A DNA stretch of 64,000 nt, taken from the IMG/VR virus record IMGVR_UViG_3300050821_001948, positions 66,644-130,643 of that record; one strand, 5' to 3'. This document shows, one piece after another, positions 2,542 through 30,257 of the stretch (the stretch's first letter is position 1; the number at the start of each line of letters is the position of its first letter). The notes below the pieces were generated by a model, which did no database searches, had not been told where the DNA came from, and worked only from the letters and a program-made list of their open reading frames with translations. Both the position numbers and the translations under genes were made by a program. The stretch comes from a virus.

Positions 2542-3633
2542 ATGGCTAACCAACTAAAATACGGTCGTCGTCCGCCCAAGAATTCCCCCGCCCTCAAGTT
2601 TGCAAGCTTTCGCAGCGCGGTAGTTCCAACTCATCCAACCACCGAAGACTACCTCGCGCCACTCGCGGGCTGGCAGGTTCTTGGAAATGATGTTGCTGGT
2701 GACTGCAATGCAGTGGCTTGGGCTAACATGCGTCGCCTTGTAACTGCCACCTTAGCGACTGAGAACTATCCGTCTCAGGACGAGGTGTGGGCTTTTTATA
2801 AGACGCAGAACCCAACTTTCGATCCGAACGGAACTTCTGCCGATAATGGCCCCGGCTCCAACGCTGACCAGGGTATGGATATTCAGAGTGGTCTTGAATA
2901 TCTTCAGGCTAACGGTGGACCTGATGGGGTTAAGGCAATCGCTTTCGCTAAGGTTGACCATACTAATCTCGCTGAGGTTGAGGCGGCGCTCGCGATCTTC
3001 GGTTCTCTTTGGCTCGGCATTACAGTCCTTGCGGCGAACCAGACGGAGTTCTCGAACGGCCAACCGTGGAGCAATGTTCCCAACTCCCCTATTGATGGCG
3101 GTCACGCAATCCTTGGTGGCGGCTACACCCCAGATATTAGATTCATCACCTGGGGCCAAGAGACTGAATTCGACCCCAGCTTCTGGAGCGGCTCCGCTGG
3201 CGGTAGCCCGTTGGTTGAAGAGGCATGGGTTGTTATCTGGCCAGAGCACTTCGGTTCGAAAGAATTTCTTACGGGCGTAAATCTTGCTCAGCTCGCAATT
3301 GATTACAACGCCTTGACTGGCGGAACCCTGGTTGTTCCTACCCCTCAACCACCTACCCCGGCCCCAGTACCGGCCCCGGCTCCTCAACCAACGCCGACTC
3401 CGGAACCTATCCCAGCACCCCCTGCTCCACCAACACCCGTGCCACCCATCCCGGAGCCAACCCCTAGCCCAACTCCAGTTCCGGTACCGACGCCTCAGCC
3501 ATCTCCTATCGTAGATAAGTTTGATCTTGCACTAGCCCAGGTGGCAACTTCGTGGGTTAAGAATCGCCACATCTTCAGTAATCACAAAATGGCAGTAGCT
3601 CTCAAGCAGTGGCTGGCCGGTAAGGGACTCTAA
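2542..3633 (+). CDS. papain-like cysteine peptidase domain protein with Pro-rich linker (lysis-associated)
   Basis: GDCxxxA nucleophile-like motif, GGHAILGGGY His motif, TWG; long PTP/PAP linker; directly upstream of endolysin. Confidence 0.6.
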   Translation: MANQLKYGRRPPKNSPALKFASFRSAVVPTHPTTEDYLAPLAGWQVLGNDVAGDCNAVAWANMRRLVTATLATENYPSQDEVWAFYKTQNPTFDPNGTSADNGPGSNADQGMDIQSGLEYLQANGGPDGVKAIAFAKVDHTNLAEVEAALAIFGSLWLGITVLAANQTEFSNGQPWSNVPNSPIDGGHAILGGGYTPDIRFITWGQETEFDPSFWSGSAGGSPLVEEAWVVIWPEHFGSKEFLTGVNLAQLAIDYNALTGGTLVVPTPQPPTPAPVPAPAPQPTPTPEPIPAPPAPPTPVPPIPEPTPSPTPVPVPTPQPSPIVDKFDLALAQVATSWVKNRHIFSNHKMAVALKQWLAGKGL

Positions 3634-8291: not shown

Positions 8292-8320
8292 TTGACGGGG
8301 TAGAAGCTGTCTGATAACGT
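8292..8320 (+). promoter_or_regulatory. sigma70-type promoter of the tRNA array
   Basis: TTGACG-17 nt-TAACGT. Confidence 0.6.
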
Positions 8321-8384
8321 ATGATTGCAACGTCCGATTCCGATAGTTGGACATTATAACCGAGATAAGGTACAGGAGGTAATC

Positions 8385-8486
8385 ATGATTGATACGCGCG
8401 GACTAGGGACAAACCCATCCGTTAATCAGTCATGGGCGAAGCGATTCCAGCCCACCTCGGCCTACAGTGGTGAGGAGCAGGACTAG
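8385..8486 (+). CDS. putative leader peptide (33 aa) of tRNA-array attenuator
   Basis: AGGAGGT RBS, MIDTRGLGTNPSVNQSWAKRFQPTSAYSGEEQD*, immediately before terminator. Confidence 0.6.
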   Translation: MIDTRGLGTNPSVNQSWAKRFQPTSAYSGEEQD

Positions 8487-8502
8487 ACTAAAATCTAAGC
8501 CT

Positions 8503-8533
8503 GCGCCCCTGTCCACTGGATGAGGGGCGTTTT
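8503..8533 (+). terminator. intrinsic terminator (attenuator) before first tRNA
   Basis: GCGCCCCT...AGGGGCGT + TTT. Confidence 0.65.
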
Positions 8534-8539
8534 ACATAT

Positions 8540-8611
8540 AGGGGATTAGTTCAGCGGTAGAACAGCAGTCTCCAAAACTGCGTGTCGGGAGTTCAAGTCT
8601 CTCATCCCCTG
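8540..8611 (+). tRNA. tRNA-Trp(CCA)
   Basis: cloverleaf; GCAGT-CTCCAAA-ACTGC. Confidence 0.92.
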
Positions 8612-8737
8612 CTAGACCGCCAGACCGGAGCTTGAGGCCGAGGTTCGATGTGTCTCTGGTAAGACTTGAAAACTGGACAGTGTGACCAAACGGTGTAGAA
8701 ACGAGCGTTACTTCTCGTTTTACTACTGCACCGTCAT

Positions 8738-8813
8738 CGGGATATGGAGGAGTATGGTCATCCTCGCCTGTTTTGGAAACAGGAGATCGCAGGTTCAAAT
8801 CCTGCTATCCCGA
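8738..8813 (+). tRNA. tRNA-Pro(TGG)
   Basis: cloverleaf; CCTGT-TTTGGAA-ACAGG. Confidence 0.92.
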
Positions 8814-8818
8814 CTGGA

Positions 8819-8891
8819 GTCGTTAAGGGTGTTGAGGGCAGCATACCGGCCGGTGAGGACGGAGGCTTCGGTTCGAATCCGGATTAACGAT
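8819..8891 (+). tRNA. atypical tRNA-His(GTG)-like
   Basis: acceptor TCGTTAA/TTAACGA, normal T arm, anticodon loop CG-GTG-AG (G33), mismatched anticodon stem, no U8. Confidence 0.55.
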
Positions 8892-8897
8892 TCGTTT

Positions 8898-8969
8898 GTG
8901 GTACAGGTGTTCTCGGTGACACGCCAGTCTTCCAAACTGGAGAACGGGGTTCGATCCCCCGGTGCCGCA
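8898..8969 (+). tRNA. tRNA-Gly(TCC)
   Basis: CCAGT-CTTCCAA-ACTGG. Confidence 0.9.
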
Positions 8970-9016
8970 CTAGACCCGGAGCGATCCCTAGTGAAAGTGG
9001 CTACATCGCCGGGTAT

Positions 9017-9083
9017 GCCAGACATTCTGGGACTAACGAGCCTTCGTACGGCTTGTAGTGGAGTTCGATTCTCCAGTTTGGCT
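9017..9083 (+). tRNA. tRNA-Thr(CGT), truncated D arm
   Basis: GAGCC-TTCGTAC-GGCTT; normal T arm; D arm reduced. Confidence 0.7.
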
Positions 9084-9091
9084 CGTATTTT

Positions 9092-9164
9092 GCCAGATTA
9101 GCTCAGTTGGAAGAGCGCCTCTCTTGTAAAGAGGATGTCGCGGGTTCGATTCCTGCATCTGGCT
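9092..9164 (+). tRNA. tRNA-Thr(TGT)
   Basis: CCTCT-CTTGTAA-AGAGG. Confidence 0.95.
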
Positions 9165-9194
9165 CTGGTGATGTTTTGTTAGCATCACTCATTT

Positions 9195-9267
9195 GCTGCC
9201 GTAGCTCATCTGGTAGAGCACTTCCCTGGTACGGAAGAGGTGCAAGGTTCGAGTCCTTGTGGTAGCT
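9195..9267 (+). tRNA. tRNA-Thr(GGT)
   Basis: CTTCC-CTGGTAC-GGAAG. Confidence 0.93.
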
Positions 9268-9342
9268 CTTGAAGCGGTATTCAATAGGGACATCGGGCCA
9301 TATGGAGCCCGATAGAACGCCGGTTTCCGGTGACCGCTCGTT

Positions 9343-9415
9343 GTGAAAGTAGCTCAGTTGGTAGAGCGCCACCTTGCCAAGGTGGAGGTCGCGGGTTCGA
9401 GCCCCGTCTTTCGCT
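9343..9415 (+). tRNA. tRNA-Gly(GCC)
   Basis: CCACC-TTGCCAA-GGTGG. Confidence 0.95.
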
Positions 9416-9554
9416 CAATGCACTAACTGGAACCCTGGCTGACGCTAACCACGCTCAGAGGGGTTCCGTGGTGGTGCAGGATGTATGGAAAGTGTTCTGC
9501 GGCAGGCGGTAGGTTGGTTACCTATGCGCACGTCGAAATTACTCCCGTACCTCT

Positions 9555-9626
9555 GGTTCTTTAGCTCAGTTGGTAGAGCAAGCGGTTGAAGCCCGCTGTG
9601 CGAAGGTTCAAGTCCTTCAGGAACCA
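9555..9626 (+). tRNA. tRNA-Phe(GAA)
   Basis: AGCGG-TTGAAGC-CCGCT. Confidence 0.92.
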
Positions 9627-9712
9627 CTGGAATCGATGGAAAAGAGGTAGTAGCCCAACGCGGTTGCGTCTTACGGTAACCATTCCGTGATTATGGGAGA
9701 TTGATTCCGTAT

Positions 9713-9785
9713 TGGAGAGTTGAGTAATTGGTAGCTCACCTGACTTTGAATCAGGCCGGTGTAGGTTCGAATCCTGCTTCTCCAG
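9713..9785 (+). tRNA. tRNA-Gln(TTG)
   Basis: CCTGA-CTTTGAA-TCAGG. Confidence 0.92.
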
Positions 9786-9851
9786 CTAGAGTGGGTATCA
9801 CGGCTGTCTTAGGACCGGATATTAAACGATCTACAGACGCCCGCTCGTTAT

Positions 9852-9924
9852 TGGCTACTAGGGGAACGGTAGACCCACTCGGCTCTGACCCGAGATCTTC
9901 CTAGTTCGAATCTAGGGTAGCCAG
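9852..9924 (+). tRNA. tRNA-Gln(CTG)
   Basis: CTCGG-CTCTGAC-CCGAG. Confidence 0.9.
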
Positions 9925-9948
9925 CTTATGCTACAATGTAGACAGCAT

Positions 9949-10021
9949 GTCCCACTAGCCCAACGGTAGAGGCAACGGGTTTAAGCCCCGTCTAGTGTCC
10001 GTTCGAATCGGACGTGGGATA
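9949..10021 (+). tRNA. tRNA-Leu(TAA)
   Basis: ACGGG-TTTAAGC-CCCGT; short variable loop. Confidence 0.9.
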
Positions 10022-10037
10022 CGACATAGTAAGACGA

Positions 10038-10111
10038 GCGCCTGGGACCGAACGGTTTGACGGTACTGAGCTTATATCTCAGCGGACAAGGTTCAATTCC
10101 TTGCGGGCGTA
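10038..10111 (+). tRNA. tRNA-Ile(TAT)
   Basis: CTGAG-CTTATAT-CTCAG; A73. Confidence 0.82.
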
Positions 10112-10119
10112 CGTAACAT

Positions 10120-10193
10120 GCAGGAGCATCCAAGCGGTTGAGGGAAACGTCTGATAAGCGTTAGCGGTGTAAGTTCGAATCTTACCTCCTGTA
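10120..10193 (+). tRNA. tRNA-Ile(GAT)
   Basis: AACGT-CTGATAA-GCGTT. Confidence 0.82.
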
Positions 10194-10213
10194 CGTCGAT
10201 ATGATAGAATCAT

Positions 10214-10286
10214 GGTCCGTTAGTGTAGCGGTTATCACGCCTGCCTCTCACGCAGGAAATCGCCGGTTCGAATCCGGCACGGACTA
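10214..10286 (+). tRNA. tRNA-Glu(CTC)
   Basis: CCTGC-CTCTCAC-GCAGG. Confidence 0.93.
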
Positions 10287-10333
10287 CGACAGAACAGTAC
10301 TGTTTTTGGTATAGTTCTGACACATAATAACGT

Positions 10334-10409
10334 CGCGGAGTGGACTGGAGTTCGGCCCCAGCACGGCCTCATAAGCCGTACGACGCAGGTTCGAATCCTG
10401 CCTCCGCCA
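10334..10409 (+). tRNA. tRNA-Met(CAT), initiator-like
   Basis: C1 unpaired, CGCGGAG acceptor; ACGGC-CTCATAA-GCCGT. Confidence 0.85.
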
Positions 10410-10463
10410 CTGGTTGATGAATAGCATGCTTCGAGGTGACGAGCCCCCGACATTAACCGTTAT

Positions 10464-10539
10464 TGGCATGATGCTCTTGTCGGCTCAGGGCGCCTGGCTG
10501 TTAACCAGGACTTCGTAGGTTCGACTCCTACCATGCCAG
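10464..10539 (+). tRNA. tRNA-Asn(GTT)
   Basis: CCTGG-CTGTTAA-CCAGG. Confidence 0.85.
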
Positions 10540-10578
10540 CAGGGTTACTATACGCAAGGTCGCTTAGTAACCTGATAT

Positions 10579-10648
10579 GGGCTTTACGCTAAGGTAGCGA
10601 TCCTCTTTTGCAAGGAGGCTGTAAGGGGTTCGATTCCCCTAGGGTCCA
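10579..10648 (+). tRNA. tRNA-Ala(TGC)
   Basis: CCTCT-TTTGCAA-GGAGG; G3-U70 present. Confidence 0.8.
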
Positions 10649-10649
10649 C

Positions 10650-11048
10650 GTGGGAAATACCGAACGCAAAAGATTCATCCGAGATAAACGCAGACGAATT
10701 CTAGTCTCTGCGCTGGGTGGACTTTGTTCTAGTTGTGGTGTAGCTGAGAATCTTCAGTTTGATCACATCATCCCTGCTACAAAGGTCTTCGAAATGAGCG
10801 GTTATCATCTAGATAAGCCTTGGGTCATCCTAATAGATGAGTTGTCTAAGTGTCAGTTATTGTGTAACGATTGCCATCTCGATAAATCTAAACTAGAGGG
10901 TTCGCTCGGAACGGTAGATCACGGTGGTGGTATTAGTGGAAAGAAAAACTGCCCCTGTGTGCTATGTAAAACTCGCAAGGCTGAATATATGAAGAATTAT
11001 CACTTGGGACGTTGGAGCAGCGGAGTGCTCGTCACCCTGTCAAGGTGA
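10650..11048 (+). CDS. HNH endonuclease (free-standing, in tRNA array)
   Basis: CSSCG...LQFDHI...KCQLLCNDCH; C-terminus overlaps tRNA-Asp. Confidence 0.85.
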   Translation: MGNTERKRFIRDKRRRILVSALGGLCSSCGVAENLQFDHIIPATKVFEMSGYHLDKPWVILIDELSKCQLLCNDCHLDKSKLEGSLGTVDHGGGISGKKNCPCVLCKTRKAEYMKNYHLGRWSSGVLVTLSR

Positions 11049-11078
11049 AGGTCACGGGTTCAAATCCCGTACGTCTCG
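11006..11078 (+). tRNA. tRNA-Asp(GTC)
   Basis: TCACC-CTGTCAA-GGTGA. Confidence 0.93.
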
Positions 11079-11079
11079 C

Positions 11080-11152
11080 GGTGTCTATAGCTCAGTGGTT
11101 AGAGCGCCCGACTGTGACTCGGGATACGATGGTTCGACCCCATCTAGACACA
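11080..11152 (+). tRNA. tRNA-His(GTG)
   Basis: CCCGA-CTGTGAC-TCGGG; G-1, A73. Confidence 0.88.
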
Positions 11153-11154
11153 CT

Positions 11155-11227
11155 GTGAGAGGTAGCCCAATAGAGAGGCAACCTGATAAGGGATCAAAGT
11201 GTCGGTGTCAAATCCGACCCTCTCACC
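11155..11227 (+). ncRNA. tRNA-like RNA with degenerate anticodon arm
   Basis: G-TGAGAGG/CCTCTCA-C acceptor, D arm, T stem with 8-nt loop TGTCAAAT, no 5-bp/7-nt anticodon arm. Confidence 0.6.
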
Positions 11228-11230
11228 TAT

Positions 11231-11307
11231 GCCATGACTGCTGGGACAGACGCGGGTCTGTAAAACCTGCTCCTACGGATAGCGAGGTTCGATTCCTCGG
11301 CGTGGCA
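11231..11307 (+). tRNA. tRNA-Tyr(GTA), reduced D arm
   Basis: GCGGGT-CTGTAAA-ACCTGC, long variable arm, T arm. Confidence 0.75.
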
Positions 11308-11308
11308 C

Positions 11309-11382
11309 TAGTGTGTAGCTCAGTAATAGAGCATCGGCACCACAGCCGAAGGTCCCCGGTCTGAAAACTCCGGGCGCGCTTC
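11309..11382 (+). ncRNA. tRNA-like RNA with 6-nt anticodon loop and 10-nt T loop
   Basis: TAGCTCAG..AGAGC D arm, TCGGC-ACCACA-GCCGA, AGGTC variable loop, CCCGG-TCTGAAAACT-CCGGG. Confidence 0.6.
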
Positions 11383-11384
11383 TT

Positions 11385-11465
11385 GGAAGGTAGCGCGAAT
11401 GGTCGCAATCGGTCTTGAAAACCGTGCCAGGGTTAAACCTGAGGGTTCGATTCCTTTACTTTCCG
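11385..11465 (+). tRNA. tRNA-Ser(TGA)
   Basis: CGGT-CTTGAAA-ACCG, long variable arm, G73. Confidence 0.85.
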
Positions 11466-11560
11466 CAAGAAGACAGTTAGTTGGAGGCCCACAGGTCAAT
11501 GAAGACCCTGTTTTCTAGTCAGCCAGAAATACTTGTGCACAGTAATCTGGTTGGCGTCAT

Positions 11561-11631
11561 GCATCCGTAGCTGAGGGGATTAGCCGCTGACTCTTAATCA
11601 GCAGACGTTGGTTCGATTCCAACCGGGTGTA
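11561..11631 (+). tRNA. tRNA-Lys(CTT)
   Basis: GCTGA-CTCTTAA-TCAGC. Confidence 0.9.
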
Positions 11632-11655
11632 CTTGTGTTAGACTGCTAGAAACAA

Positions 11656-11727
11656 GCCTCGCTAGCTCAGAGGAAGAGCAGCCGACTTTTAATCGGCGGG
11701 TCGGGATATCGTAATTCTCGCGGGGTA
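11656..11727 (+). tRNA. tRNA-Lys(TTT), atypical T loop
   Basis: GCCGA-CTTTTAA-TCGGC; T loop ATCGTAA. Confidence 0.8.
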
Positions 11728-11728
11728 C

Positions 11729-12073
11729 ATGGTGAAAGAAAAGCTATTCTCGGTAACGGTTAACGACTGCGAAGTGCAGACCTTCCGTTCTGGTGGTAAT
11801 GGCGGTCAAAACCAGAACGTTCGCGATACTGGCGTTCGGATTATTCATCATCCATCGGGCGCTCGCGGTGAGTCACGCGAGGAGCGTTCTCAGCTACAAA
11901 ATAAGAGAACCGCCTTCCGAAGAATGGCTGAGTCTGCTAAGTTTAAGATCTGGATTACTCGGGTCGTCGGAAATCGACTTTCACCCGAACAGCAGGTAGA
12001 GAAAGATATGCAGGAAGCGAACTTGAAAGTTGAGGTTCGTGATGGTAAGGTTTGGAAAGTTGTGCCTCACTAG
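11729..12073 (+). CDS. RF-1 domain (GGQ) peptidyl-tRNA hydrolase / ribosome rescue factor
   Basis: TFRSGGNGGQNQN...TGVRIIH.PSG...ERSQLQNK. Confidence 0.9.
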   Translation: MVKEKLFSVTVNDCEVQTFRSGGNGGQNQNVRDTGVRIIHHPSGARGESREERSQLQNKRTAFRRMAESAKFKIWITRVVGNRLSPEQQVEKDMQEANLKVEVRDGKVWKVVPH

Positions 12074-12137
12074 CTCAGTGGACTAGAGCACTTGGTTTCT
12101 ACCCAAGGTGTCGCAGGTTCGAATCCTGCGTGGGGCT
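12064..12137 (+). tRNA. tRNA-Arg(TCT)
   Basis: CTTGG-TTTCTAC-CCAAG; overlaps stop of GGQ gene. Confidence 0.92.
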
Positions 12138-12264
12138 CGCGTTGGCCAAGCACGGCCATAGGTTTGAGTGTCATAGTCTGTCAGATACGCTCGGAGTCAT
12201 ATGCCCGAAGACGGCTGGCTAAGCTCTTACCGAATTGGGAACTCGAAAGCCCTTTGCGCAGCAT

Positions 12265-12348
12265 GGAAGATGCCCGCACGGCGACGGAGCCTGAGTGCTA
12301 ATCAGGTACGAGGTAAAACTCCGGTAGGTTCGACTCCTACATCTTCCG
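12265..12348 (+). tRNA. tRNA-Ser(GCT)
   Basis: CCTGA-GTGCTAA-TCAGG, long variable arm. Confidence 0.85.
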
Positions 12349-12455
12349 CTGCATAGTTCAGGTAGCCAGCGTGTATTGATGTGATGACGGATCGATTGTG
12401 ATAGAATCGTCCCGATCCATATTGAGCCCTCTCTTATGTTACTATCACCTACATA

Positions 12456-12520
12456 GACTGGGTAACGCGAAAGAACACCGACTTCATACGTCGGAGACCT
12501 GTGAGTGGCGCACTCAGTCA
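12456..12520 (+). ncRNA. minimal tRNA-like RNA with CAT anticodon (degenerate D and T arms)
   Basis: GACTGGG/CTCAGTC acceptor + A73, CCGAC-TTCATAC-GTCGG, 4-bp T-stem remnant. Confidence 0.6.
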
Positions 12521-12525
12521 AATTT

Positions 12526-12596
12526 GCCGCTGTTGCCGAATGGTTAGGCGCTGGATTGCAACCCCAGTTACGCAGGTCCGATTCCTGTCGGCGGCT
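12526..12596 (+). tRNA. tRNA-Cys(GCA)
   Basis: CTGG-ATTGCAACC-CCAG; U73. Confidence 0.88.
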
Positions 12597-12639
12597 CGAT
12601 ATTCACTGTTATGCTATTATTTACCGATAGTGTAAATAT

Positions 12640-12713
12640 GGCCTACTACTCCAATAGGTAGAGGGGACGGATTCAAAACCCGTACAGTCTCAGTTCGAAT
12701 CTGAGGTGGGCCA
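12640..12713 (+). tRNA. tRNA-Leu(CAA)
   Basis: ACGG-ATTCAAAAC-CCGT. Confidence 0.88.
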
Positions 12714-12726
12714 CGTAGTAAGATAT

Positions 12727-12800
12727 GCCGGTGTATCCCAATTGGTAGAGGAGCCTGACTTAGAATCAGGATGTTGGAGGTTCGAGTCCTCTCATCGGTA
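12727..12800 (+). tRNA. tRNA-Leu(TAG)
   Basis: CCTGA-CTTAGAA-TCAGG. Confidence 0.92.
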
Positions 12801-12903
12801 CAAGGGTTGTCAACGGTAGCTGCCTGTCGGCTACTGGCAATGCGGCTTAGACCACCGCGCCGCGCATGAAGCTTGGTCGGCGGATTGCTTGATGGCCCAG
12901 TTT

Positions 12904-12976
12904 GCCGGATTACGTCATGGGGTAGACTGGCTCCCTTACAAGGAGTTTGCGGAAGGTTCGAGTCCTTCATCCGGTA
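12904..12976 (+). tRNA. tRNA-Val(TAC)
   Basis: GCTCC-CTTACAA-GGAGT. Confidence 0.88.
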
Positions 12977-13109
12977 CGCAGTTGCCTCGGCCTCCAGGGG
13001 CGAAGTTGGGTGTGGTTAGCGCATGAGGGATATTCTAGAAACACCCTGAAGTCAGCGTCATCCGGCGATCTGTGGGGATTGGTGTCCATAGAGACTGTAC
13101 CCACTTAAG

Positions 13110-13138
13110 TTGACAATAGGCGAACGCCGTGTTAACTT
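13110..13138 (+). promoter_or_regulatory. sigma70-type promoter of rpf
   Basis: TTGACA-17 nt-TAACTT. Confidence 0.6.
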
Positions 13139-13237
13139 ACTATAAGTAAATAGCAAGGAGCCCCACCAGGGGTTCAGCCAGGACGCCCCAAAATTCGATT
13201 TGAATGAGGGTGTCGCCGCAACTGCCTCTGGAGACAC

Positions 13238-13687
13238 ATGCCCTATGCTATCAAATTCCTTATTGTCCTAATCATCGCTGTAGTTTCGCCAGGTAAACCG
13301 CCGAATATTATCGCAGCTTCTGATACTCAGCCGGTAGTATTCAGTTATCAAGACTCCGTAAGTGCAGCATTCGCGTTCCATGATTTAATGGTTCAAGATG
13401 CACCTAAACCCAAACCTATTAAACCAACTCCGGTAGCATACAATACCGTATGGGATCATCTAGCTCAGTGTGAGTCCTCTGGTAACTGGGCTGACACCGC
13501 TGGTATGTTTGAGGGCGGTCTCCAGTTCCTCCACTCTACATGGATCGAGTATGGCGGCGCGACCTTCGCTCAGCACGCCTACGAGGCCACCAGGGAGCAG
13601 CAGATCCTAGTGGCTACAAGAGCCTTAGCTGGGCGTCCAGACTGGTCAGCGTGGCCTGTGTGTAGCATCAAGCTTGGTCTACGATAA
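13238..13687 (+). CDS. rpf: resuscitation-promoting factor (Rpf) transglycosylase
   Basis: hydrophobic N-terminus; WDHLAQCESSGNW...GGLQF..STW...ATREQQI...AWPVCS. Confidence 0.92.
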   Translation: MPYAIKFLIVLIIAVVSPGKPPNIIAASDTQPVVFSYQDSVSAAFAFHDLMVQDAPKPKPIKPTPVAYNTVWDHLAQCESSGNWADTAGMFEGGLQFLHSTWIEYGGATFAQHAYEATREQQILVATRALAGRPDWSAWPVCSIKLGLR

Positions 13688-13742
13688 ATCTTTCCCTTCA
13701 TTGTGAAGGGAAAACGGCGTGAAGCCGTGAAAGAAAGGTGGC

Positions 13743-13937
13743 GTGATGCCAAAAGAAAAGTTCTACGACAGCACTCGAATTGATGGAGATGGATTACCTC
13801 CAGATATTATCGTTGCTTGGGGAAATTCCCAACCAGAGGTCACCATCAATGGCATAGTGTATGATAGGTCTGGGGTAAATCGTTTGATCAGCACTCTTCG
13901 TAAGGCGCGAAATCAAACTTATGGACCCGATGAATAA
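13743..13937 (+). CDS. hypothetical protein
   Basis: ORF track; GAAAGG RBS. Confidence 0.65.
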   Translation: MMPKEKFYDSTRIDGDGLPPDIIVAWGNSQPEVTINGIVYDRSGVNRLISTLRKARNQTYGPDE

Positions 13938-14119
13938 AATGTGATATGATGAAGCTGCCCTGTGCGTGGGGCGCGCGACCTGTTGCGGGAAGCGGCACGT
14001 ACCGGAAGGTCGGTAGGCTGGGGTAGCCGATCACCGTTAAACACTACCCAGACGCAACCTCTTCATAGGCATTCGTGCCCGTCTCCCCGGCGCGTTGAAG
14101 AGTATGTAGCCGGGGTTTA

Positions 14120-14195
14120 GCTTCTATAGCTCAGTGGAAAGAGCGTCTGGCTACGAACCAGAAGGTCGGGAGTTCGAATCTCTCTAGGGGCACCA
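14120..14195 (+). tRNA. tRNA-Arg(ACG), CCA encoded
   Basis: TCTGG-CTACGAA-CCAGA. Confidence 0.95.
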
Positions 14196-14254
14196 TCGTT
14201 CAGAGGCCAAACGGTCAGGCACCGCTCTCATAAGGCGGGCAACCCGCCGATATT

Positions 14255-14722
14255 ATGAAAGTGAAGAATTGTTCAAATTGCAAGCAAACCAAACCGCACA
14301 GTGAGTTTGGCCGTAACGTAGCTACGAAAGATGGTTTACAGTATCACTGTAAGCAGTGTCGAAACGCTTACCTGAAAACTTGGTACTCTGAGAACAAGGA
14401 CTTACAAAAAAGTCGAGTCCAGAAAAATACCAAAAAGAAGGTTGATGACCGCAGAAATTTGATACGGGAAATCAAAGAGTCGACACCATGCGCAGACTGT
14501 GGTATCCTCTACCCTCCGTACGTCATGGATTTCGACCACCTCCCCGGAAGTGAGAAGATTACATCCATCTCATCCTTATCGCAAGGATGGCGTGGGAGCG
14601 TCGAGATACTAAAAGCGGAGATCCTAAAGTGTGAGCTTGTATGTGCCAACTGTCACAGAATTAGAACTCACAAAAGGCGCGTCAACGCTGGGAAGCCGAA
14701 GGGTGAGGCACCTCTCTCATAA
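14255..14722 (+). CDS. HNH endonuclease with N-terminal zinc finger (alternative start GTG 14261)
   Basis: CSNC...HCKQC; PCADCG...MDFDHL...KCELVCANCHRIRT; stop lies in anticodon loop of nested tRNA. Confidence 0.88.
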   Translation: MKVKNCSNCKQTKPHSEFGRNVATKDGLQYHCKQCRNAYLKTWYSENKDLQKSRVQKNTKKKVDDRRNLIREIKESTPCADCGILYPPYVMDFDHLPGSEKITSISSLSQGWRGSVEILKAEILKCELVCANCHRIRTHKRRVNAGKPKGEAPLS

Positions 14723-14760
14723 AGAGGCCGTCGTGGGCTCGACTCCCACTCCAGCGACCA
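14686..14760 (+). tRNA. tRNA-Met(CAT), nested replacement copy, CCA encoded
   Basis: CGCTGGG/TCCAGCG; CCTCT-CTCATAA-AGAGG; T loop CTCGACT. Confidence 0.85.
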
Positions 14761-14803
14761 TCTAACCGGGTATAGTTGGTTCGATTCCAACCTGGACGAC
14801 CAT

Positions 14804-14875
14804 CGGCTCGTAGCTCAGAGGAAGAGCACGCGGTTCCTATCCGTGGTGTCGGGGGTTCGACTCCCTCCGGGCCGA
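14804..14875 (+). tRNA. tRNA-Arg(CCT)
   Basis: CGCGG-TTCCTAT-CCGTG. Confidence 0.9.
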
Positions 14876-14881
14876 CAATGG

Positions 14882-15205
14882 TCACACTGTCCTGGGTGCC
14901 CGTTCCCGTTCTTGACGACTCATCTCTAGGATGAAGTCAGTAATCTCGTCTTCGGTGATAGCTGGGCCTTGGGGATTGGATTCTACCAGCTCTAGTGGTA
15001 CATGGCTCAGTACGTGCTCAACCATAGGGAACAGAAGCGCCACTATTGCAGAGTTAGCATCCCTCTGGTAAGCTTGGGAACACTTAGAGCAAACGAATTC
15101 GTAATATGGTTTACCGTAGGGGTCGTCAAATAGATAGAGGGTCACACGCTCAGGCGTTAATTCAACCCTTCCATCTATCGGGCAAACTACAGCAATACCA
15201 TTCAT
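14882..15205 (-). CDS. hypothetical zinc-binding protein
   Basis: CPxDG...CSKC, C-terminal GPAITEDE; ATG 15205 avoids overlap with tmRNA. Confidence 0.65.
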   Translation of the reverse strand: MNGIAVVCPIDGRVELTPERVTLYLFDDPYGKPYYEFVCSKCSQAYQRDANSAIVALLFPMVEHVLSHVPLELVESNPQGPAITEDEITDFILEMSRQERERAPRTV

Positions 15206-15268
15206 AGTGTTATTATCGCACGTGACGCAAACCGATATGAATTCTACAACTGAATAGGGTTTACACAT

Positions 15269-15627
15269 GGGGGTGCCGGGTTTCGACGGCATCTGCTGAT
15301 GTGAGAGAAGCGAGCAAGACCAAGGTAACACGGAAGTCTTTCAAAACTCTTGTTGCATAAAATAAATGAGGCATTCGTGCCCGCTCGTTCTTACGCTCTC
15401 GTAGCCTAGGAACCGTCAGCCCGAGGATTCCTCGACTCGGTAACTGGCGTCAGCTAGAGGAACGCTCTCCGATTAGGTGTTCGAGTAGTCGGAGCTAAGA
15501 TACACGAACTAAGCTCACCGGATGAGTCCCGCAATGCCGGAAGCTGACATTTAAGACCGGGACTACGCTCGTAGAAGAAGCACAAACGTAATGTCGGACG
15601 GGAGTTCAACTCTCCCCACCTCCACCA
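15269..15627 (+). ncRNA. ssrA: tmRNA; tag (A)EAFVPARSYALVA at 15368-15409
   Basis: GGGGGTG..TTTCGAC 5' end, GACGGGAGTTCAACTCTCCCCACCTCCACCA 3' end, G3-U70, AATAAAT resume signal. Confidence 0.93.
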
Positions 15628-15683
15628 ACGCTCGATGGAACCCTATACGGGAGCTAACTATTGCGTTTTCATCGAGCGTGTTT

Positions 15684-15755
15684 GGCCGATTGGGGTACTG
15701 GCTAGCCCTCCTGACCTTCACTCAGGGAGAAACGGATCGAAACCGTTATCGGCTA
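15684..15755 (+). tRNA. tRNA-Glu(TTC), C33 and atypical T loop
   Basis: CCTGA-CCTTCAC-TCAGG; AACGG-ATCGAAA-CCGTT. Confidence 0.75.
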
Positions 15756-15768
15756 CAAAGTGAGTCTT

Positions 15769-15840
15769 GTTTTCGTAGCTCAATGGAAGAGCGTAGCCCT
15801 CCGAAGGCTAAGGTTGCTGGTTCAAGTCCAGCCGGGAACA
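15769..15840 (+). tRNA. tRNA-Arg(CCG)
   Basis: TAGCC-CTCCGAA-GGCTA. Confidence 0.92.
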
Positions 15841-15884
15841 CTTTTATCGGTTGAATGCCGATATACTCTTCAGGAGGTAATACA

Positions 15885-16061
15885 ATGGCTGAAGATAGAG
15901 TACTCGGAACCGGCGCACAGCATTTGTCCGCCGTTCAGGTTGGTAGATCACTCTTTGCTCACGAGTCCGCATTTGAAGTAGTGGCAGAACCAGCAACGGA
16001 CGTTATTGAGGTAGTAGTTCCAGATCCCGTAATTTCGGAAGCTACTTCCACCGAAGAGTAA
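15885..16061 (+). CDS. small acidic hypothetical protein
   Basis: AGGAGG RBS; GCCGATA upstream at 15857. Confidence 0.6.
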   Translation: MAEDRVLGTGAQHLSAVQVGRSLFAHESAFEVVAEPATDVIEVVVPDPVISEATSTEE

Positions 16062-16101
16062 TAGGCTTTCATCTTATTCAAGAATAGCCGATAAAGTCTT
16101 C

Positions 16102-16293
16102 GTGACACTTATTACCGAGAAGGCTACCCATAACCTCGATTTGCCACATGCATTTTTTGGCGTCGGGGATATTGAGCTGTCTTCAATTCGCAAGTGCGTT
16201 TGTGGTCGGAACGGTAACGATCCTCTACATAGTTTCTCACAGACTGAATGGGCATCGTCTAACGAGCCCCTAATGACCGAAAAGGGGTCGTAA
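16102..16293 (+). CDS. small hypothetical protein
   Basis: GTG 8 nt after GCCGATA (16087-16093). Confidence 0.55.
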   Translation: MTLITEKATHNLDLPHAFFGVGDIELSSIRKCVCGRNGNDPLHSFSQTEWASSNEPLMTEKGS

Positions 16294-18716: not shown

Positions 18717-19943
18717 GTGCAGTTAGACGATCTGATTGATCCAGAAGCCCTACGTAAGAAAATAGATCTTGGCCACGTAGCTGAGCGCCACCACTGTACC
18801 CTCCCCCTAGCTATCCTAAATTACACGGCCCGATGCCAGTACGCTAACGACTGGGATGAGGTCACCTCAAAGACTCGTGGTTTAATTTACAACACTGAGA
18901 CAGGTAAGATTGTCGCTAGGCCCTTCGAGAAGTTCTTCAATCTGGGTCAGCACACTGATGATGAGATCCCTACTGGACCCATACGTGTCTTAGAGAAGAT
19001 GGACGGTTCTCTTGGGATTCTTTATGACACACCGGATGGGTTAGCTATCGCAACTCGCGGATCATTTCATAGCGAACAGGCTGAGCACGCAACTGAGGTT
19101 CTCCGATTCAACATAGAGCACTATTATGGTCCAGGCTCTAAGCTTCCGTTTAGTCCAGACCTTGAGAATCATACATATCTTTTCGAGATCATCTATCCAG
19201 CGAATCGCATCGTTGTGGATTATGGATCAAAAGATCTGTTAGTGCTTTTGGATGTTTTGGATATTGAGACAGGAATGGCAGTTCCTGAGTTCGATCTGTA
19301 TGATCAGCGTTATTATTTTGGACCTCATGTTTATCGTCATGAGGGGATTAAAAGCCTTTCTGAATTGATCGACAGAGATGTGCCAAATGCCGAAGGCTAT
19401 GTCGTTGTTTTTGACAATAACTTCCGTGTTAAGGTCAAGCACGCTGAGTATGTTCGGCTACATAGAATTCTAACGAACGTTACTGCTCGTAGTATTTATG
19501 AGTGTATAGCTGTAGAGGATCTAAAGAAGAGGGGCTTCGGAGCCAAGGAGATAGCACGATCTATTAGTATTAGCGACGAAGAGGTTGAAGATTATCCCTC
19601 ACTAGCGCAGCTTCTAGACGGAGTTCCGGATGAGTTCTACTCTTGGGTCCACAAGGTGGTTCATCGACTAGAAACGGCATTCTCCGAGATTGAATCTGAG
19701 GCCAAGATTGAGTTCTTGAATAATTTAGCCTTCATCGATGTCCCCCTTCCCGGCTTTGAAGAATTCGATCAGCAGCCAGTGAAGGATGGTCGAGCTGAGT
19801 TCGCTAAGGTTGCGCAGAAGAGTAAGTATGCTAGTATGATGTTCCTGATGTATGATGGTAAGCCTTACCACCAAGCTATCTGGAAGATATTGCGCCCCGA
19901 GCACGAGAAGCCATTTGGAGAAAGGACAGAGGATGTATCGTGA
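18717..19943 (+). CDS. RNA ligase, T4 Rnl1-like
   Basis: RGLI, PFEKFFN, EKMDGSLG (motif I), ATRGSF, FEII, EGYVV, RVKVK. Confidence 0.9.
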   Translation: MQLDDLIDPEALRKKIDLGHVAERHHCTLPLAILNYTARCQYANDWDEVTSKTRGLIYNTETGKIVARPFEKFFNLGQHTDDEIPTGPIRVLEKMDGSLGILYDTPDGLAIATRGSFHSEQAEHATEVLRFNIEHYYGPGSKLPFSPDLENHTYLFEIIYPANRIVVDYGSKDLLVLLDVLDIETGMAVPEFDLYDQRYYFGPHVYRHEGIKSLSELIDRDVPNAEGYVVVFDNNFRVKVKHAEYVRLHRILTNVTARSIYECIAVEDLKKRGFGAKEIARSISISDEEVEDYPSLAQLLDGVPDEFYSWVHKVVHRLETAFSEIESEAKIEFLNNLAFIDVPLPGFEEFDQQPVKDGRAEFAKVAQKSKYASMMFLMYDGKPYHQAIWKILRPEHEKPFGERTEDVS

Positions 19944-26683: not shown

Positions 26684-28534
26684 ATGGCTGTGATGGAAGT
26701 AGAGGCATCGTCTGAGATTTTTATAGCCGGTCAGCCTATGCAGTTCATAAATGACTCAGGCTTACCGTCCTCACAGCTTATTGAGGACCCTGGTATGCGC
26801 GAACTAGCTAGTTCGCTTTCACACTGGGTTGATAATGCACGTGCCGCTACTGGTAGAAACACCATGTTCGACCGAGGAGCGTTTACCCCCCCTAACAACT
26901 ATTACGACGAAGTTCGCGCAGCTCGTCATGCCGTTCAATATGACTCAATCGTTAGCGGTGTTGCTGAAATCACCGAAGCATTCGCATTCCAGGGGATCAA
27001 ATGGGAGTCTCCGGATGCAGATGAGGCTGATGTATTCAATCAACTAGCTATTGATCAGAACCTTGACTCTATTATTCGCAAGATGTGGAAAGAGGAGTTT
27101 ACTGGATCTCAGGCTATTATGGCTAAGATCTGGGGATGGAGTGAGTACACCTCCCGCGTTCAGACTGAAAGCGGAAATAAGAAGAAGAAGAAGTACAAGA
27201 TCTGGGCACCCCAGCAAATCCGTACACTGGATAGCTGCAAGGTTGTTCCAGTTGGCGTTGGCCCACTTGGTGGAGAGGCGCTTGCATGGCAAGCTACCCC
27301 CGGCGAGATTGGGCACTACACGTCAGCATTCTTGGGGGATAAAATTGATCCACTGATGATCACCTATTTCCAAGGGCCTTATGAGCCAGGTTTTGAAGAG
27401 GCTTCTGAGCTTTCACGTCTAGGGGTAGTGACTAGTCGTCTTCTCGTTATGAATCCGGAGTGGGTTTTTCGGCATGTAGTTACTAAGCCAGATTACGAAA
27501 GATTCCCAGAGGTTCGCTTAAAGTCCATCTTTGCGCTATTGGACCTAAAGCGCCAGTTGATGCAAGCCGATAGGGCTAGCCTTATTGGGGCGGCTAACTA
27601 TATCCTTCACGTAAAGAAGGGTCTACCTAATGAGCCAGCACTTGCTCCCGAGATTCAGCACCTCCAGGACAGTTACAACTACATCGTTAAGATGCCTGTT
27701 ATTATCTCAGACCATCGCCTGAATATTGAGATCATTTCCCCCAAGACGGACCTGACCCTAAATCCGGATAAGTACGAGATGCTCGACCAACGTATTCTCA
27801 ACCGGCTTCTTGGGACACTTTCACCCGGTGGTAGAAACTCTGGACGCAGCGAGAATCAGGACACATTGTCAGCGTCGGTTGCGCAGGTTATGGAGAACCG
27901 GCGCCACATGCTCAAGAGGACGATGGAGATTGAGGTTGCTCGCGCAATTATTAATCACCCCAAGAATAAGGGTATCTTCGAATATGAGCCGAATCTAGTT
28001 TATACACCTAGGCGCATTGCTCTTAACATGGATGCTGCGTATGCGCAGGCACTCCAGGCATTGAGAACCCAGCGTGAGATTTCAAGAGAGACAATTCTTG
28101 AGTTCTTTGGGTTGGATGAATCGGTCGAGGCGATGCGTCTTGAGATGGAAGCGAAGATGTATGACGACATCTTTAAGACTGAAATTCCATACTCAAAGGG
28201 TCAGCCAAGCCAGGATGTGGATGCAAACCTAGATAAGAAGGATGCACCTTCTGCGGTTACTGTTGCACCTGATGGGACACTCAAGGTGGCACCAGCCGCT
28301 CCATCAAAGACTGCAACTACAAAGGATGGCCCAAACAAGGGTGGGGCTGCTTCAACTCCCGCTTCCGGTCAACCGTCTAATGGTAAAGCAAAGACTGGAC
28401 CGAACGGAACCCCAGAGTCGCCAAAGGTGTCTGGAGCCCGTGGTGGTCGCCCCGTTGGTGGAGGAACTTCACCGAAATCACCAGCGGCGACCGCAAAACC
28501 GAAGACGCCTAGAGGAAATCCGAGGAGTGGCTGA
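26684..28534 (+). CDS. portal protein
   Basis: 616 aa, position after terL, ISRETILEFFG C-terminal motif, low-complexity tail. Confidence 0.75.
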   Translation: MAVMEVEASSEIFIAGQPMQFINDSGLPSSQLIEDPGMRELASSLSHWVDNARAATGRNTMFDRGAFTPPNNYYDEVRAARHAVQYDSIVSGVAEITEAFAFQGIKWESPDADEADVFNQLAIDQNLDSIIRKMWKEEFTGSQAIMAKIWGWSEYTSRVQTESGNKKKKKYKIWAPQQIRTLDSCKVVPVGVGPLGGEALAWQATPGEIGHYTSAFLGDKIDPLMITYFQGPYEPGFEEASELSRLGVVTSRLLVMNPEWVFRHVVTKPDYERFPEVRLKSIFALLDLKRQLMQADRASLIGAANYILHVKKGLPNEPALAPEIQHLQDSYNYIVKMPVIISDHRLNIEIISPKTDLTLNPDKYEMLDQRILNRLLGTLSPGGRNSGRSENQDTLSASVAQVMENRRHMLKRTMEIEVARAIINHPKNKGIFEYEPNLVYTPRRIALNMDAAYAQALQALRTQREISRETILEFFGLDESVEAMRLEMEAKMYDDIFKTEIPYSKGQPSQDVDANLDKKDAPSAVTVAPDGTLKVAPAAPSKTATTKDGPNKGGAASTPASGQPSNGKAKTGPNGTPESPKVSGARGGRPVGGGTSPKSPAATAKPKTPRGNPRSG

Positions 28535-28535
28535 T

Positions 28536-30257
28536 ATGGCTAATTTGATCCCAGAAGACAGTGTGCCACCCCATGGTTTTCATACTGGCTATAACGGTAA
28601 GTGCTTAATCTGTAATGGTCAGCCCGGTGGGCCTATTCACGAGGACTGGCTGGATAATCAGACACCCGAATTTACCAGCAAGCTGGTAGATAACCTTCCC
28701 GATGAGGATTATGGGAAGAGCGAGTACTCATCTGATGGTGATGACGATGAGGAGGAAACTCATTCAGGGGTAATGATCGCTTTAATGGTCGATCCTTCTG
28801 TCGCAGATATCTTAGCCATTCCTGGCGGGGAGCCAGCTAATAACATGCACGTAACGCTTGCCTACCTAGGTGATGCGGTTGATTTACAGAACCCTGATGA
28901 TCTAATTTCTACAGTTAAGCAGTTTGCCACAGATGAGGGTAAGCCCTTAAGTGGTAAAGTGAATGGCCTTGGTTTATTCACTGGCGGCGAGACTACGGTT
29001 ACCTATGCAAACGCTGATGTCCCAGGTCTACCAGTACTTCGCCAGCAATTACTTCAGGTACTTGATGCTGCCGGATTCATTGTGGACAATTCTCATGGAT
29101 TCACCCCTCATATCACGCTAGCCTTTTCGGATGAGCGTAATATAGATGTACCGAATCTTCCATTGGAATTTACTACGATGACTGTCGCCATCGCCGGGAA
29201 GAAGACTACTTTCCCACTCGGTGAGTCACCAGAGGTATCTGGTGTTCATAAGAAGCATAAGTACAAGCATCCAGTCGGTGAACCATTGAAGGAACATCGT
29301 GAGAGCTTTGTCGGATTCCCGATGGCAGCACAGTATCCCCCTTGCGCTGATTGCGGGGGTGCCAAAGATTCGGATGATCATATTCCCGATAATGATGTTG
29401 ATGACACTGCTGTCAGTGGTATGCCAGAACCAGCGAGCGCCGGGAGTAGTACGCTTCAGAAGTTTACAACTGGCTACCTTCAGGTCGTAGATCGCCAGCC
29501 TATTATAACCCCAAAACCTGAGGTTCAGACTGCGTTCATTTCTGAGGTAAACGGTCATACACTACTCACTGGCCCAGCTCATGTGGATAATATTTGGGAA
29601 AAGGCTCTAACTCCAAATCAGCATATGATGTGGTTACAGGGTCGTCTTGTTGGCGCTGATGAGGCTAATAGGAACAAGGCGTATTGGTCCAGCGATGATC
29701 TTGAGTTTGGTGAGCCAACTGTTTCCCACGGGCCACTTAACTGGCTTCATGAGTCACGTCATATCATCGGAGCGATCGCGGACCAGCAACTAATTCATGC
29801 TCCGGAGAGGTCTTCTACTACTAAGAGTCTACCTACACACGTGGCGGCGGTTGCTGGTATTTGGAAGTGGATATATCCAGATGAGGCGTATGTGGTAGAG
29901 CAGGCTAGTGATCAGGGTAGACTCTATTTCTCTATGGAATGCATCTCTGAGAACGTAGAGTGCATCGGAGATAATGGGTGCGGCGAGAAGGCGTCCTACA
30001 GTGACTATCTAAAGGGTCGCGGTTGCCAGCACATGCGGGAGAAGTCGGCGGTTCGTCGGTTTGAGAACCCCACGTTTTTGGGGGCAGCGGTTATCGTTCC
30101 ACCAGTGCGTCCAGGTTGGGCGGATGCTGACGCTCGTATAATTAGGGAAGCTGCGTCATTAGCTGAGGTTGCCTTTGAGAAGGTTAACCCAGATATGGCG
30201 GCTACTGAGTGGGAGGCGCTGATGCGCCAGGTGGTTGGATACGCGCACACCATTTAA
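28536..30257 (+). CDS. 2H-phosphoesterase domain fused to capsid maturation protease-like domain
   Basis: HVTL and HITL 2H motifs; C-terminal NRNK..W, PLNWLH...IIG, FSMEC, FLGAAV.PPVRPGW between portal and scaffold. Confidence 0.7.
   Translation: MANLIPEDSVPPHGFHTGYNGKCLICNGQPGGPIHEDWLDNQTPEFTSKLVDNLPDEDYGKSEYSSDGDDDEEETHSGVMIALMVDPSVADILAIPGGEPANNMHVTLAYLGDAVDLQNPDDLISTVKQFATDEGKPLSGKVNGLGLFTGGETTVTYANADVPGLPVLRQQLLQVLDAAGFIVDNSHGFTPHITLAFSDERNIDVPNLPLEFTTMTVAIAGKKTTFPLGESPEVSGVHKKHKYKHPVGEPLKEHRESFVGFPMAAQYPPCADCGGAKDSDDHIPDNDVDDTAVSGMPEPASAGSSTLQKFTTGYLQVVDRQPIITPKPEVQTAFISEVNGHTLLTGPAHVDNIWEKALTPNQHMMWLQGRLVGADEANRNKAYWSSDDLEFGEPTVSHGPLNWLHESRHIIGAIADQQLIHAPERSSTTKSLPTHVAAVAGIWKWIYPDEAYVVEQASDQGRLYFSMECISENVECIGDNGCGEKASYSDYLKGRGCQHMREKSAVRRFENPTFLGAAVIVPPVRPGWADADARIIREAASLAEVAFEKVNPDMAATEWEALMRQVVGYAHTI

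Follow-up and report, generated by a model that had tools for sequence, protein, structure and literature searches.

A phage tRNA-Met gene probably broken and replaced by an HNH endonuclease cassette carrying its own tRNA-Met

Among described systems, the closest to the locus presented here is SegB of phages T4 and T6, a free-standing GIY-YIG homing endonuclease encoded in a tRNA gene cluster (PMC2330249, PMC13096335), which recognises a 27-bp site with a T-arm motif and cuts inside tRNA genes (PMC2330249). In the tRNA arrays of actinophages, few protein genes are as common as those for HNH endonucleases, and a role in reshuffling the tRNA repertoire has been proposed for them (PMC5966550, PMC6409571). 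Inserts within tRNA genes are also on record: mobile group I introns with homing endonucleases occur in bacterial tRNA genes (PMC3984707), and Lak megaphages have 'enigmatic' tRNA introns, present in some genomes and absent from others, one of which is predicted to encode a tRNA (PMC6784885). Homing endonucleases usually spare the gene that hosts them, either by residing in self-splicing introns or inteins or by occupying an intergenic site. Here we describe what is probably a third solution, in which the gene is broken and a spare is brought along: a 531-bp cassette, with an HNH endonuclease gene and a complete tRNA-Met gene, that lies inside a split tRNA-Met gene in a 64,000-nucleotide stretch of viral DNA (IMG/VR record IMGVR_UViG_3300050821_001948, positions 66,644 to 130,643), below called the window. 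Coordinates are those of the window, and the features of the locus lie on its + strand.

The resident, or outer, tRNA-Met(CAU) gene is present as a 5′ half at 14197–14239, comprising the acceptor strand, a 3-bp D stem and the complete anticodon arm with CAT, and a 3′ half at 14771–14802, with four variable-loop bases, a canonical T arm, the complementary acceptor strand, A73 and CCA. Between them lies the inserted cassette (14240–14770), bounded by the tetranucleotide CGGG, which is found at 14236–14239 and again at 14767–14770; the right end of the insert (14761–14770) consists of a 6-nt spacer and the second CGGG copy. An earlier note, made from the letters of this DNA, had described two tRNA-Met(CAT) parts around a 531-bp insert with a CGGG repeat and had claimed that deleting the insert gives a perfect cloverleaf. 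Both statements proved correct: joined in silico, the halves make a 75-nt tRNA-Met(cat) that is called by ARAGORN with every stem paired.

This split-tRNA signal is not due to chance. ARAGORN calls a tRNA for 122 of the 224 joins tried around the junction; as a chance control, 20,000 random 531-bp deletions yielded 47 junction-spanning calls, and the 20 of these that were inspected all lie in the tRNA array, four being this very locus and the others fusing two annotated tRNAs. Among 1,115,832 joins made across 8300–16100, with breakpoints outside annotated tRNAs, the locus forms the top class, with 111 calls. The next classes, tRNA-Lys(TTT) and tRNA-Ile(TAT), were rejected as split genes, both being complete tRNAs that ARAGORN had overlooked at its default settings; these two cloverleaves lie at 11656–11728 (Lys, with a 9-nt T loop) and at about 10038–10112 (Ile, called only at a relaxed threshold).

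An uninterrupted version of the gene exists in a relative. Two soil runs, X1 and X2, share words with the stretch and were aligned to 13600–15400; no RNA run is listed among those sharing words with it. One X1 contig (415 nt, depth 5.4) aligns to 13986–14235 and then to 14767–14929, skipping exactly 531 bp, with four ambiguous bases at the junction and 163 nt on the shorter side. Compared with the window, it shows 23 substitutions and 6 gaps over the 250 nt of its left flank and 7 substitutions over the 163 nt of its right flank (about 90% identity), and further X1 contigs match 13637–13850, 15078–15221 and 15311–15400 at similar divergence; because the flanks and the other contigs diverge from the window in this way, the X1 sequence comes from a related phage and not from the same one. 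Among the X1 differences listed (two are not), 14205 G>A, at tRNA position 9, is the only one inside the tRNA. The outer halves are continuous in this contig as a natural uninterrupted tRNA-Met and, since the relative's allele is uninterrupted, the insert is a DNA insertion, polymorphic between relatives. It was on the presence of such an empty allele in relatives, and on the joined halves scoring as a tRNA, that the earlier note had staked its reading beforehand, and its reading came through both of these checks. The other run, X2, covers tRNA-Arg pieces and 13600–13703 only.

Nor is the insert a group I intron: a search of 13900–15100 against Rfam at E ≤ 1 returned tRNAs only, with no ribozyme or intron family, and a 5′ exon could end here in G, C, G, G or G but not in the U that group I introns need. 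Only 63 nt of the insert lie outside the HNH open reading frame (ORF). Presence/absence polymorphism, a mark of free-standing homing endonuclease genes, is seen both at the window locus and at that of Streptomyces phage Wofford, discussed below, and the nuclease gene also shows the other mark of this class, a position outside any self-splicing intron or intein.

The HNH ORF (14255–14722) encodes 155 residues from ATG 14255 or, more likely, 153 from GTG 14261, the start favoured in the earlier note: family members have an N-terminal MKxC, which the GTG start (MKNC…) fits better than the ATG, and the GTG also stands 8 nt from a promoter-like motif at the spacing described below. The product matches PHROG 2255, 'HNH endonuclease' (6e-35), and PHROG 3106 (2.5e-23), and the claim that the insert holds an HNH gene whose stop codon is supplied by the anticodon loop of a second tRNA-Met is upheld, the TAA at 14720–14722 falling within that loop. 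The ORF is in frame with no host protein gene. In an alignment of 12 sequences – the window HNH, ten relatives from IMG/VR and the window's second HNH – the family-invariant residues C79, C82, D94, H95, C130, C133 and H134 are all kept in the window protein; D94-H95 and C130-x-N-C133-H134 make up the HNH motif, with D94, H95 and H134 invariant, and the two CxxC pairs for structural zinc, C79/C82 and C130/C133, are invariant as well.

The AlphaFold2 (AF2) model of the protein has a predicted local distance difference test (pLDDT) score of 91.9. Its best Foldseek matches are HNH nucleases, but weak ones (4h9d, E 0.27), with nothing at E ≤ 0.001, and a sequence search of the Protein Data Bank (PDB) gave chance matches only. 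VIA-align places residues 62–155 on Gme HNH (Z 4.2, root-mean-square deviation 4.4, 65 aligned) and on T4 endonuclease VII (Z 4.0, deviation 4.2, 74 aligned), both weakly, and residues 1–41 on Hpy99I (Z 5.8, deviation 2.0, 40 aligned). It is by motif and profile, and not by fold, that the protein can be assigned to the HNH class. It has 2131 relatives in a set of 5.8 billion proteins; among the 120 listed, the highest identity is 56%, over 44% of the query. Its GC content, 45–46% compared with 50–57% in the surroundings, makes a contrast too weak for use.

Ahead of the HNH gene lies the promoter-like motif GCCGATA (14246–14252), 8 nt before GTG 14261. The window holds 13 copies of this motif (range 2527–59660) compared with 6.4 ± 2.8 expected, and 12 of the 13 are on the +, or gene, strand; an ATG or GTG stands exactly 8 nt downstream of 8 of these 12, which accords with the placement given in the earlier note. 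The linked starts belong to structural-region and other genes and include, besides the HNH GTG, those of the ORFs at 16102, 31957, 35136 and 42849. GCCGATA looks like this phage's promoter for leaderless transcripts; that it is a 'late' promoter is something we infer. A scan for sigma-70 promoters and terminators gave zero sites at the left end of the cassette.

The left junction also bears a hairpin (GGCGGG-CAA-CCCGCC, 14234–14248), formed between the 3′ strand of the broken anticodon stem and the bases at the start of the insert. The suggestion that it sequesters the broken stem agrees with the minimum-energy fold of 14197–14270 (−24.3 kcal/mol, z −2.61, with 3 of 200 shuffles as good), in which the hairpin is part of a longer helix and the CAU loop is paired to the bases that immediately precede the HNH start; a transcript beginning at 14261 would be without the 5′ arm of this helix. 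A similar pairing, between the anticodon loop and bases ahead of the HNH ATG, is found at one related locus from IMG/VR (L009, below) and is missing from Wofford. The hairpin as a means of translational control is a lead only.

The second tRNA-Met(CAU), the inner one, occupies 14686–14760, and its 5′ part overlaps the end of the HNH ORF. It is called by ARAGORN and scores 48.9 bits with Rfam RF00005 (E 3.7e-9), so that its predicted cloverleaf stands above the curated threshold (gathering score 29). It is 71% identical to the outer gene (54 of 76 alignment columns), the two being the closest pair among the seven CAU tRNAs compared, and the claim of a complete yet divergent inner tRNA-Met is thus sustained. 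By alignment count, a stretch of 26 positions centred on the junction has 8 differences between inner and outer genes, 4 of them within the 5 positions 43–47, and their T loops read CTCGACT and TTCGATT, respectively. Inner T loops depart from the TTCRA consensus in three of five nests, that is, of loci where one tRNA gene encloses another (the window, 14686–14760; L145, 1922–1994; L079, 3389–3462); readable outer T loops are mostly canonical, and the deviation of the inner ones may bear on immunity to the nuclease.

The same arrangement is found in cultured phages. The best GenBank match of the window HNH is gp171 of Streptomyces phage Wofford (44% identical), whose gene ends 38 nt inside a tRNA-Met(cat). 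By exact matching, Wofford has a 40-nt 5′ half and a 29-nt 3′ half that agree base for base with phage Elmer's second tRNA-Met, which is intact; the 704-bp insert between them holds the HNH gene, an inner tRNA-Met and a small ORF, and 3 nt of the outer tRNA have been lost, yet the joined halves are still called tRNA-Met by ARAGORN. The uninterrupted allele is present in 10 records from six phages (Elmer, Karimac, Enygma, StarPlatinum, LukeCage and Bmoc), and the split allele, Met within Met in each case, in four records from three (Wofford, Riptide and Anedea). Riptide has the same cassette with another upstream tRNA and other downstream genes, and 19 nt of the 3′ half are left there; the cassette has thus moved from one background to another. 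Between Wofford and Riptide, the HNH genes differ at 26 of 459 bases and 6 of 153 residues, and their pN/pS of 0.10 shows that the nuclease is under purifying selection; the inner tRNAs show no difference in 73 positions, and the 5′ half with its leader shows 2 in 73. In another Streptomyces phage, TunaTartare (L151, NC_070784, about 783–1310), the order is mirrored: a complete tRNA-Arg(acg) is followed by the HNH gene and then by an orphan T arm together with an acceptor strand that exactly matches the one in the upstream tRNA-Arg, the remnant being a 3′ and not a 5′ one.

More distant relatives of the window HNH in IMG/VR, at most 48% identical over their full length, are in many cases encoded in tRNA arrays and on the tRNA strand, and at 14 of 80 such loci a tRNA on the same strand begins close to the HNH stop, from 23 nt ahead of it to 7 nt beyond it. 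At 26 loci, the sequence upstream of the HNH gene was joined to that downstream and the joins were passed to ARAGORN; junction-spanning calls outside annotated tRNAs were obtained at four loci and at none of the other 22. Three of the four – the window locus, L009 and L079 – are nests with the same anticodon inside and outside. In L009, an outer split tRNA-Arg(TCT) surrounds the HNH gene and an inner tRNA-Arg(TCT)-like gene (54 of 120 joins called), and in L079 an outer tRNA-Gly(TCC) surrounds the HNH gene, a tRNA-Gly(TCC), a promoter-like site and a tRNA-Met (4 of 272 joins). A further nest, L004, was found by eye: an outer tRNA-His with a degenerate T arm encloses the HNH gene and a tRNA-His (7 of 238 joins called), and its loop, which begins with A, caused the criterion of the hairpin scan to pass over it. 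The nest layout thus recurs with HNH relatives 38–44% identical to the window protein. Wherever the break can be placed, it falls after the anticodon stem and before the T arm. When compared with the spacer upstream of the HNH gene, the cognate inner tRNA was the best of 15 at 6 of the 15 loci where a tRNA follows the HNH gene, the chance at each being 1/15.

The inner gene of L009 (about 3412–3486) has perfect acceptor, anticodon and T stems but no D arm, with a 19-nt stretch in place of the variable loop; it folds at −23.9 kcal/mol, and ARAGORN makes no call there. Several candidate nests were not counted: L028, whose 301 junction-spanning calls are of several tRNA types and hence ambiguous; L002 and L026, with decayed Gln-TTG 5′ fragments seen by alignment and eye only; and L021 and L065, with orphan 3′ halves but no clear 5′ half. 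In L068, L073, L074 and L078, the HNH ORF ends 0–2 nt from a tRNA-Gln(ttg) on the opposite strand, a convergent layout unlike that of the cassette.

On this evidence, the locus is best read as the work of a free-standing homing-endonuclease cassette that breaks its target tRNA gene and carries the replacement – a reading that we consider likely and that the earlier note had reached as a disrupt-and-replace element. At the DNA level it is supported by the empty allele, by the recurrence of nests with the same anticodon and by the Streptomyces relatives with empty sites. The cassette would consist of a phage-type promoter motif, the HNH gene and the complete tRNA-Met(CAU), and would have entered as DNA at the variable-loop position of the resident tRNA-Met(CAU), between anticodon stem and T arm, leaving that gene as two non-functional halves whose role the cassette's tRNA-Met would take over. 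By analogy with T4 SegB, which recognises the T arm, the HNH protein would cleave both strands of an intact tRNA-Met gene at the variable loop or close to it, its target probably being a sequence conserved among tRNA genes; neither the allele that already carries the insert nor the divergent inner tRNA would be cut. The first insertion may have occurred by end joining or by microhomology capture at the CGGG repeat; an end-joining origin of each nest is suggested by these 4 bp in the window and by the 3 nt missing from Wofford. Later spread would proceed by recombination, for which the conserved halves of the tRNA would supply the homology arms. In transcripts that read through from the array, the broken anticodon arm would fold onto the HNH start region, and transcripts from the cassette's own GCCGATA promoter would start at GTG 14261 and be translatable.

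Several considerations weigh against this proposal. Where the enzyme cuts, what it targets and whether the inner tRNA is immune are all inferred by analogy, and the protein itself has no Pfam HNH match at E ≤ 0.1 and a model that resembles solved HNH nucleases only weakly. The empty allele of the window locus is represented by one short contig from one run of guessed kind ('DNA?'), and the filled allele, of which a second copy was not found, by the IMG/VR assembly alone. Many members of the HNH family are encoded outside tRNA arrays, or beside tRNAs without remnants, and nesting is for this reason a subset of the family's behaviour. A CAU tRNA could be elongator Met, initiator or Ile2, so that the assignment of inner and outer genes to the same functional type is an assumption; in Wofford, the inner tRNA has an initiator-like anticodon stem and the outer one does not. 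Finally, the window HNH appears to be without a close homologue among the matches listed, and for that reason no donor can be named; the HNH of L009 is likewise without close relatives.

The most serious rival is that the nest is an accidental scar, in which illegitimate recombination at a random break took up an HNH–tRNA segment a single time, the nuclease not being aimed at tRNA-Met and the inner tRNA being unselected. The junctions themselves sit well with this – 4 bp of microhomology here, a 3-nt loss without any repeat in Wofford, both typical of end joining – as do the many unnested members of the HNH family. We nevertheless regard it as unlikely, because random capture predicts neither matching anticodons nor a common break site: inner and outer anticodons agree in all five of the independent nests examined (Met, Met, Arg-TCT, His and Gly-TCC), and every break lies in one region of the tRNA, on the 3′ side of the anticodon stem. 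That the anticodons match in five nests, with one design repeated for four amino-acid identities, speaks against coincidence.

Less probable still, and in our view rather remote, is an intron-like arrangement in which both tRNA-Met are made: RNase P and 3′-processing enzymes would release the inner tRNA, the extra RNA would be trimmed, and the phage's Rnl1-type ligase, with end-healing enzymes, would rejoin the outer halves. The outer halves are undecayed and form a perfect cloverleaf, as those of a maintained spliced gene would, a point that also counts against the cassette having left them non-functional; among the phage's own products are an RNA ligase of the Rnl1 family (PF09511, 9e-16) and a LigT-like domain; and the tRNA genes of Lak megaphages contain 'introns' that are still unexplained, one perhaps with a tRNA of its own (PMC6784885). 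However, the insert is a DNA polymorphism, the Rfam search of 13900–15100 found no ribozyme, and no known pathway removes 446 nt of HNH mRNA from the 5′ half or 10 nt from the 3′ half. The left-junction hairpin, moreover, competes with the outer anticodon stem. Other nests have not been maintained – Wofford is short of 3 nt, Riptide keeps 19 nt of the 3′ half, and the outer T arm or stems have degenerated in L004 and L079 – and since halves are allowed to decay there, rejoining at the RNA level is unlikely; the earlier note's alternative of Rnl1/Pnkp ligation accordingly gains no support. As for an assembly artefact, in which a chimeric metagenomic contig placed the HNH–tRNA segment inside the tRNA gene, the filled allele is indeed known from this IMG/VR record alone and runs X1 and X2 leave 14271–14758 without cover, but we consider this the least credible explanation, as both junctions fall at one point of the tRNA with zero bases lost, the same architecture recurs in finished genomes of isolated phages, and the cassette bears this phage's own promoter motif at the standard 8-nt spacing.

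If a cassette that breaks and replaces its target is accepted, the inner tRNA may be either a selected 'rescue' or merely a resistant neighbour of the kind usually carried by free-standing nucleases. A bolder version of the idea, which we put forward tentatively and hold to be slightly more doubtful than probable, is that the element represents a widespread natural 'home-and-rescue' drive: the HNH family would cut conserved variable-loop and T-arm sequence, the tRNA halves would act as homology arms, the same-anticodon tRNA would be the resistant copy, and the anticodon arm would serve as a translational clamp on the nuclease start, so that nuclease would be made only from its own promoter. 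If true, such drives would be a main engine of the turnover of phage tRNA repertoires and of tRNA sequence divergence, odd T loops included.

The IMG/VR record to which the window belongs is 130,643 bp long, the window being its right-hand 64 kb, with a CheckV completeness of 84%. ARAGORN finds 33 tRNA genes and a tmRNA across 8540–15841, every one on the + strand, with structural genes downstream of the array. The tmRNA (15269–15627, +) is of bacterial type, for which reason a bacterial host is likely. Near the array are genes for an Rpf-type transglycosylase, the Rnl1-family RNA ligase and the protein with a LigT / 2′-5′ RNA ligase-like domain, the last two at 18717–19940 and 28242–30254; together with the tmRNA beside the tRNA array, the ligase and the LigT-like protein suggest a tool kit for RNA repair and ribosome rescue. 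A second, distant HNH ORF (10650–11048), 24% identical to the first, starts directly after a tRNA-Ala that ends at 10649 and stops 43 nt into a tRNA-Asp (11006–11079), and a third member of the family is encoded on the − strand beyond the window (G000:C1:49707-49961).

The phage has no cultured close relative, the best match of its terminase among GenBank phages being 36.6% identical. A megablast of 13900–15100 against GenBank phages gave zero matches, and a sensitive blastn of the same region returned generic tRNA-Arg pieces only (243 records, none at ≥80% cover). An exact 27-mer of the outer 5′ half occurs in no viral and no metagenome contig, the flanking ORF 14885–15331 has zero relatives in either set, and relatives of the Rnl1-like protein are at most 42% identical, the 8 of their 14 loci that were scanned not being syntenic with the window.

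For annotation, the practical consequence is that the split outer gene should be labelled as two remnants, with the inner tRNA taken as the working gene. More generally, a cassette of this kind accounts for orphan tRNA halves and duplicated isoacceptors in phage tRNA arrays, may account for the published 'enigmatic' tRNA introns, and predicts a nuclease family that recognises tRNA genes. With filled (Wofford) and empty (Karimac, Elmer) alleles both available in isolated phages that grow on laboratory Streptomyces hosts, the idea is directly testable.

How, then, does the element compare with known systems? Judged by the family features that can be read from sequence, all of which it shows, it appears to work like the free-standing homing endonuclease of a phage tRNA cluster, with SegB as the prototype. 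The two share the placement of a free-standing nuclease gene inside a phage tRNA array; SegB is reported to cut the tRNA genes of phages that lack it and so to drive the inheritance of itself and of neighbouring tRNA genes, whereas cleavage by the window HNH is only predicted. SegB is also a GIY-YIG and not an HNH enzyme, and it sits between tRNA genes, the available text reporting it neither inside a broken tRNA gene nor between same-anticodon halves. The HNH genes of actinophage arrays are described, in the portions available, in terms of co-occurrence only, with no split or nested tRNA, empty site or replacement logic (PMC5966550, PMC6409571).

Mobile group I introns resemble the element in being nuclease-bearing inserts in tRNA genes, whose interrupted allele is expected to be immune and whose intact allele is the target; they differ in occupying the anticodon loop and splicing themselves out, whereas here the insert follows the anticodon stem, no ribozyme is detected and function would come from a second copy of the gene. 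The Lak megaphage genes share the interruption of a phage tRNA gene by an insert that perhaps contains a tRNA, but the main text of that report mentions no HNH or other endonuclease, treats the inserts as introns and leaves them unexplained (PMC6784885); these 'introns' may be the same kind of element seen without its nuclease context. Our literature search, confined to abstracts and main texts, found no published description of nuclease-plus-tRNA cassettes inside split tRNA genes.

A match in logic comes from engineering. In synthetic 'cleave-and-rescue' and 'home-and-rescue' gene drives, which are Cas9 systems built in insects, a nuclease destroys the wild-type copy of a gene and a linked, cleavage-resistant rescue makes good the loss, the drive sitting in the target gene. 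The window element would follow the same logic, and the resemblance is a functional one only: natural, protein-guided and at home in phages, it would be a natural counterpart to these engineered rescue-type drives.

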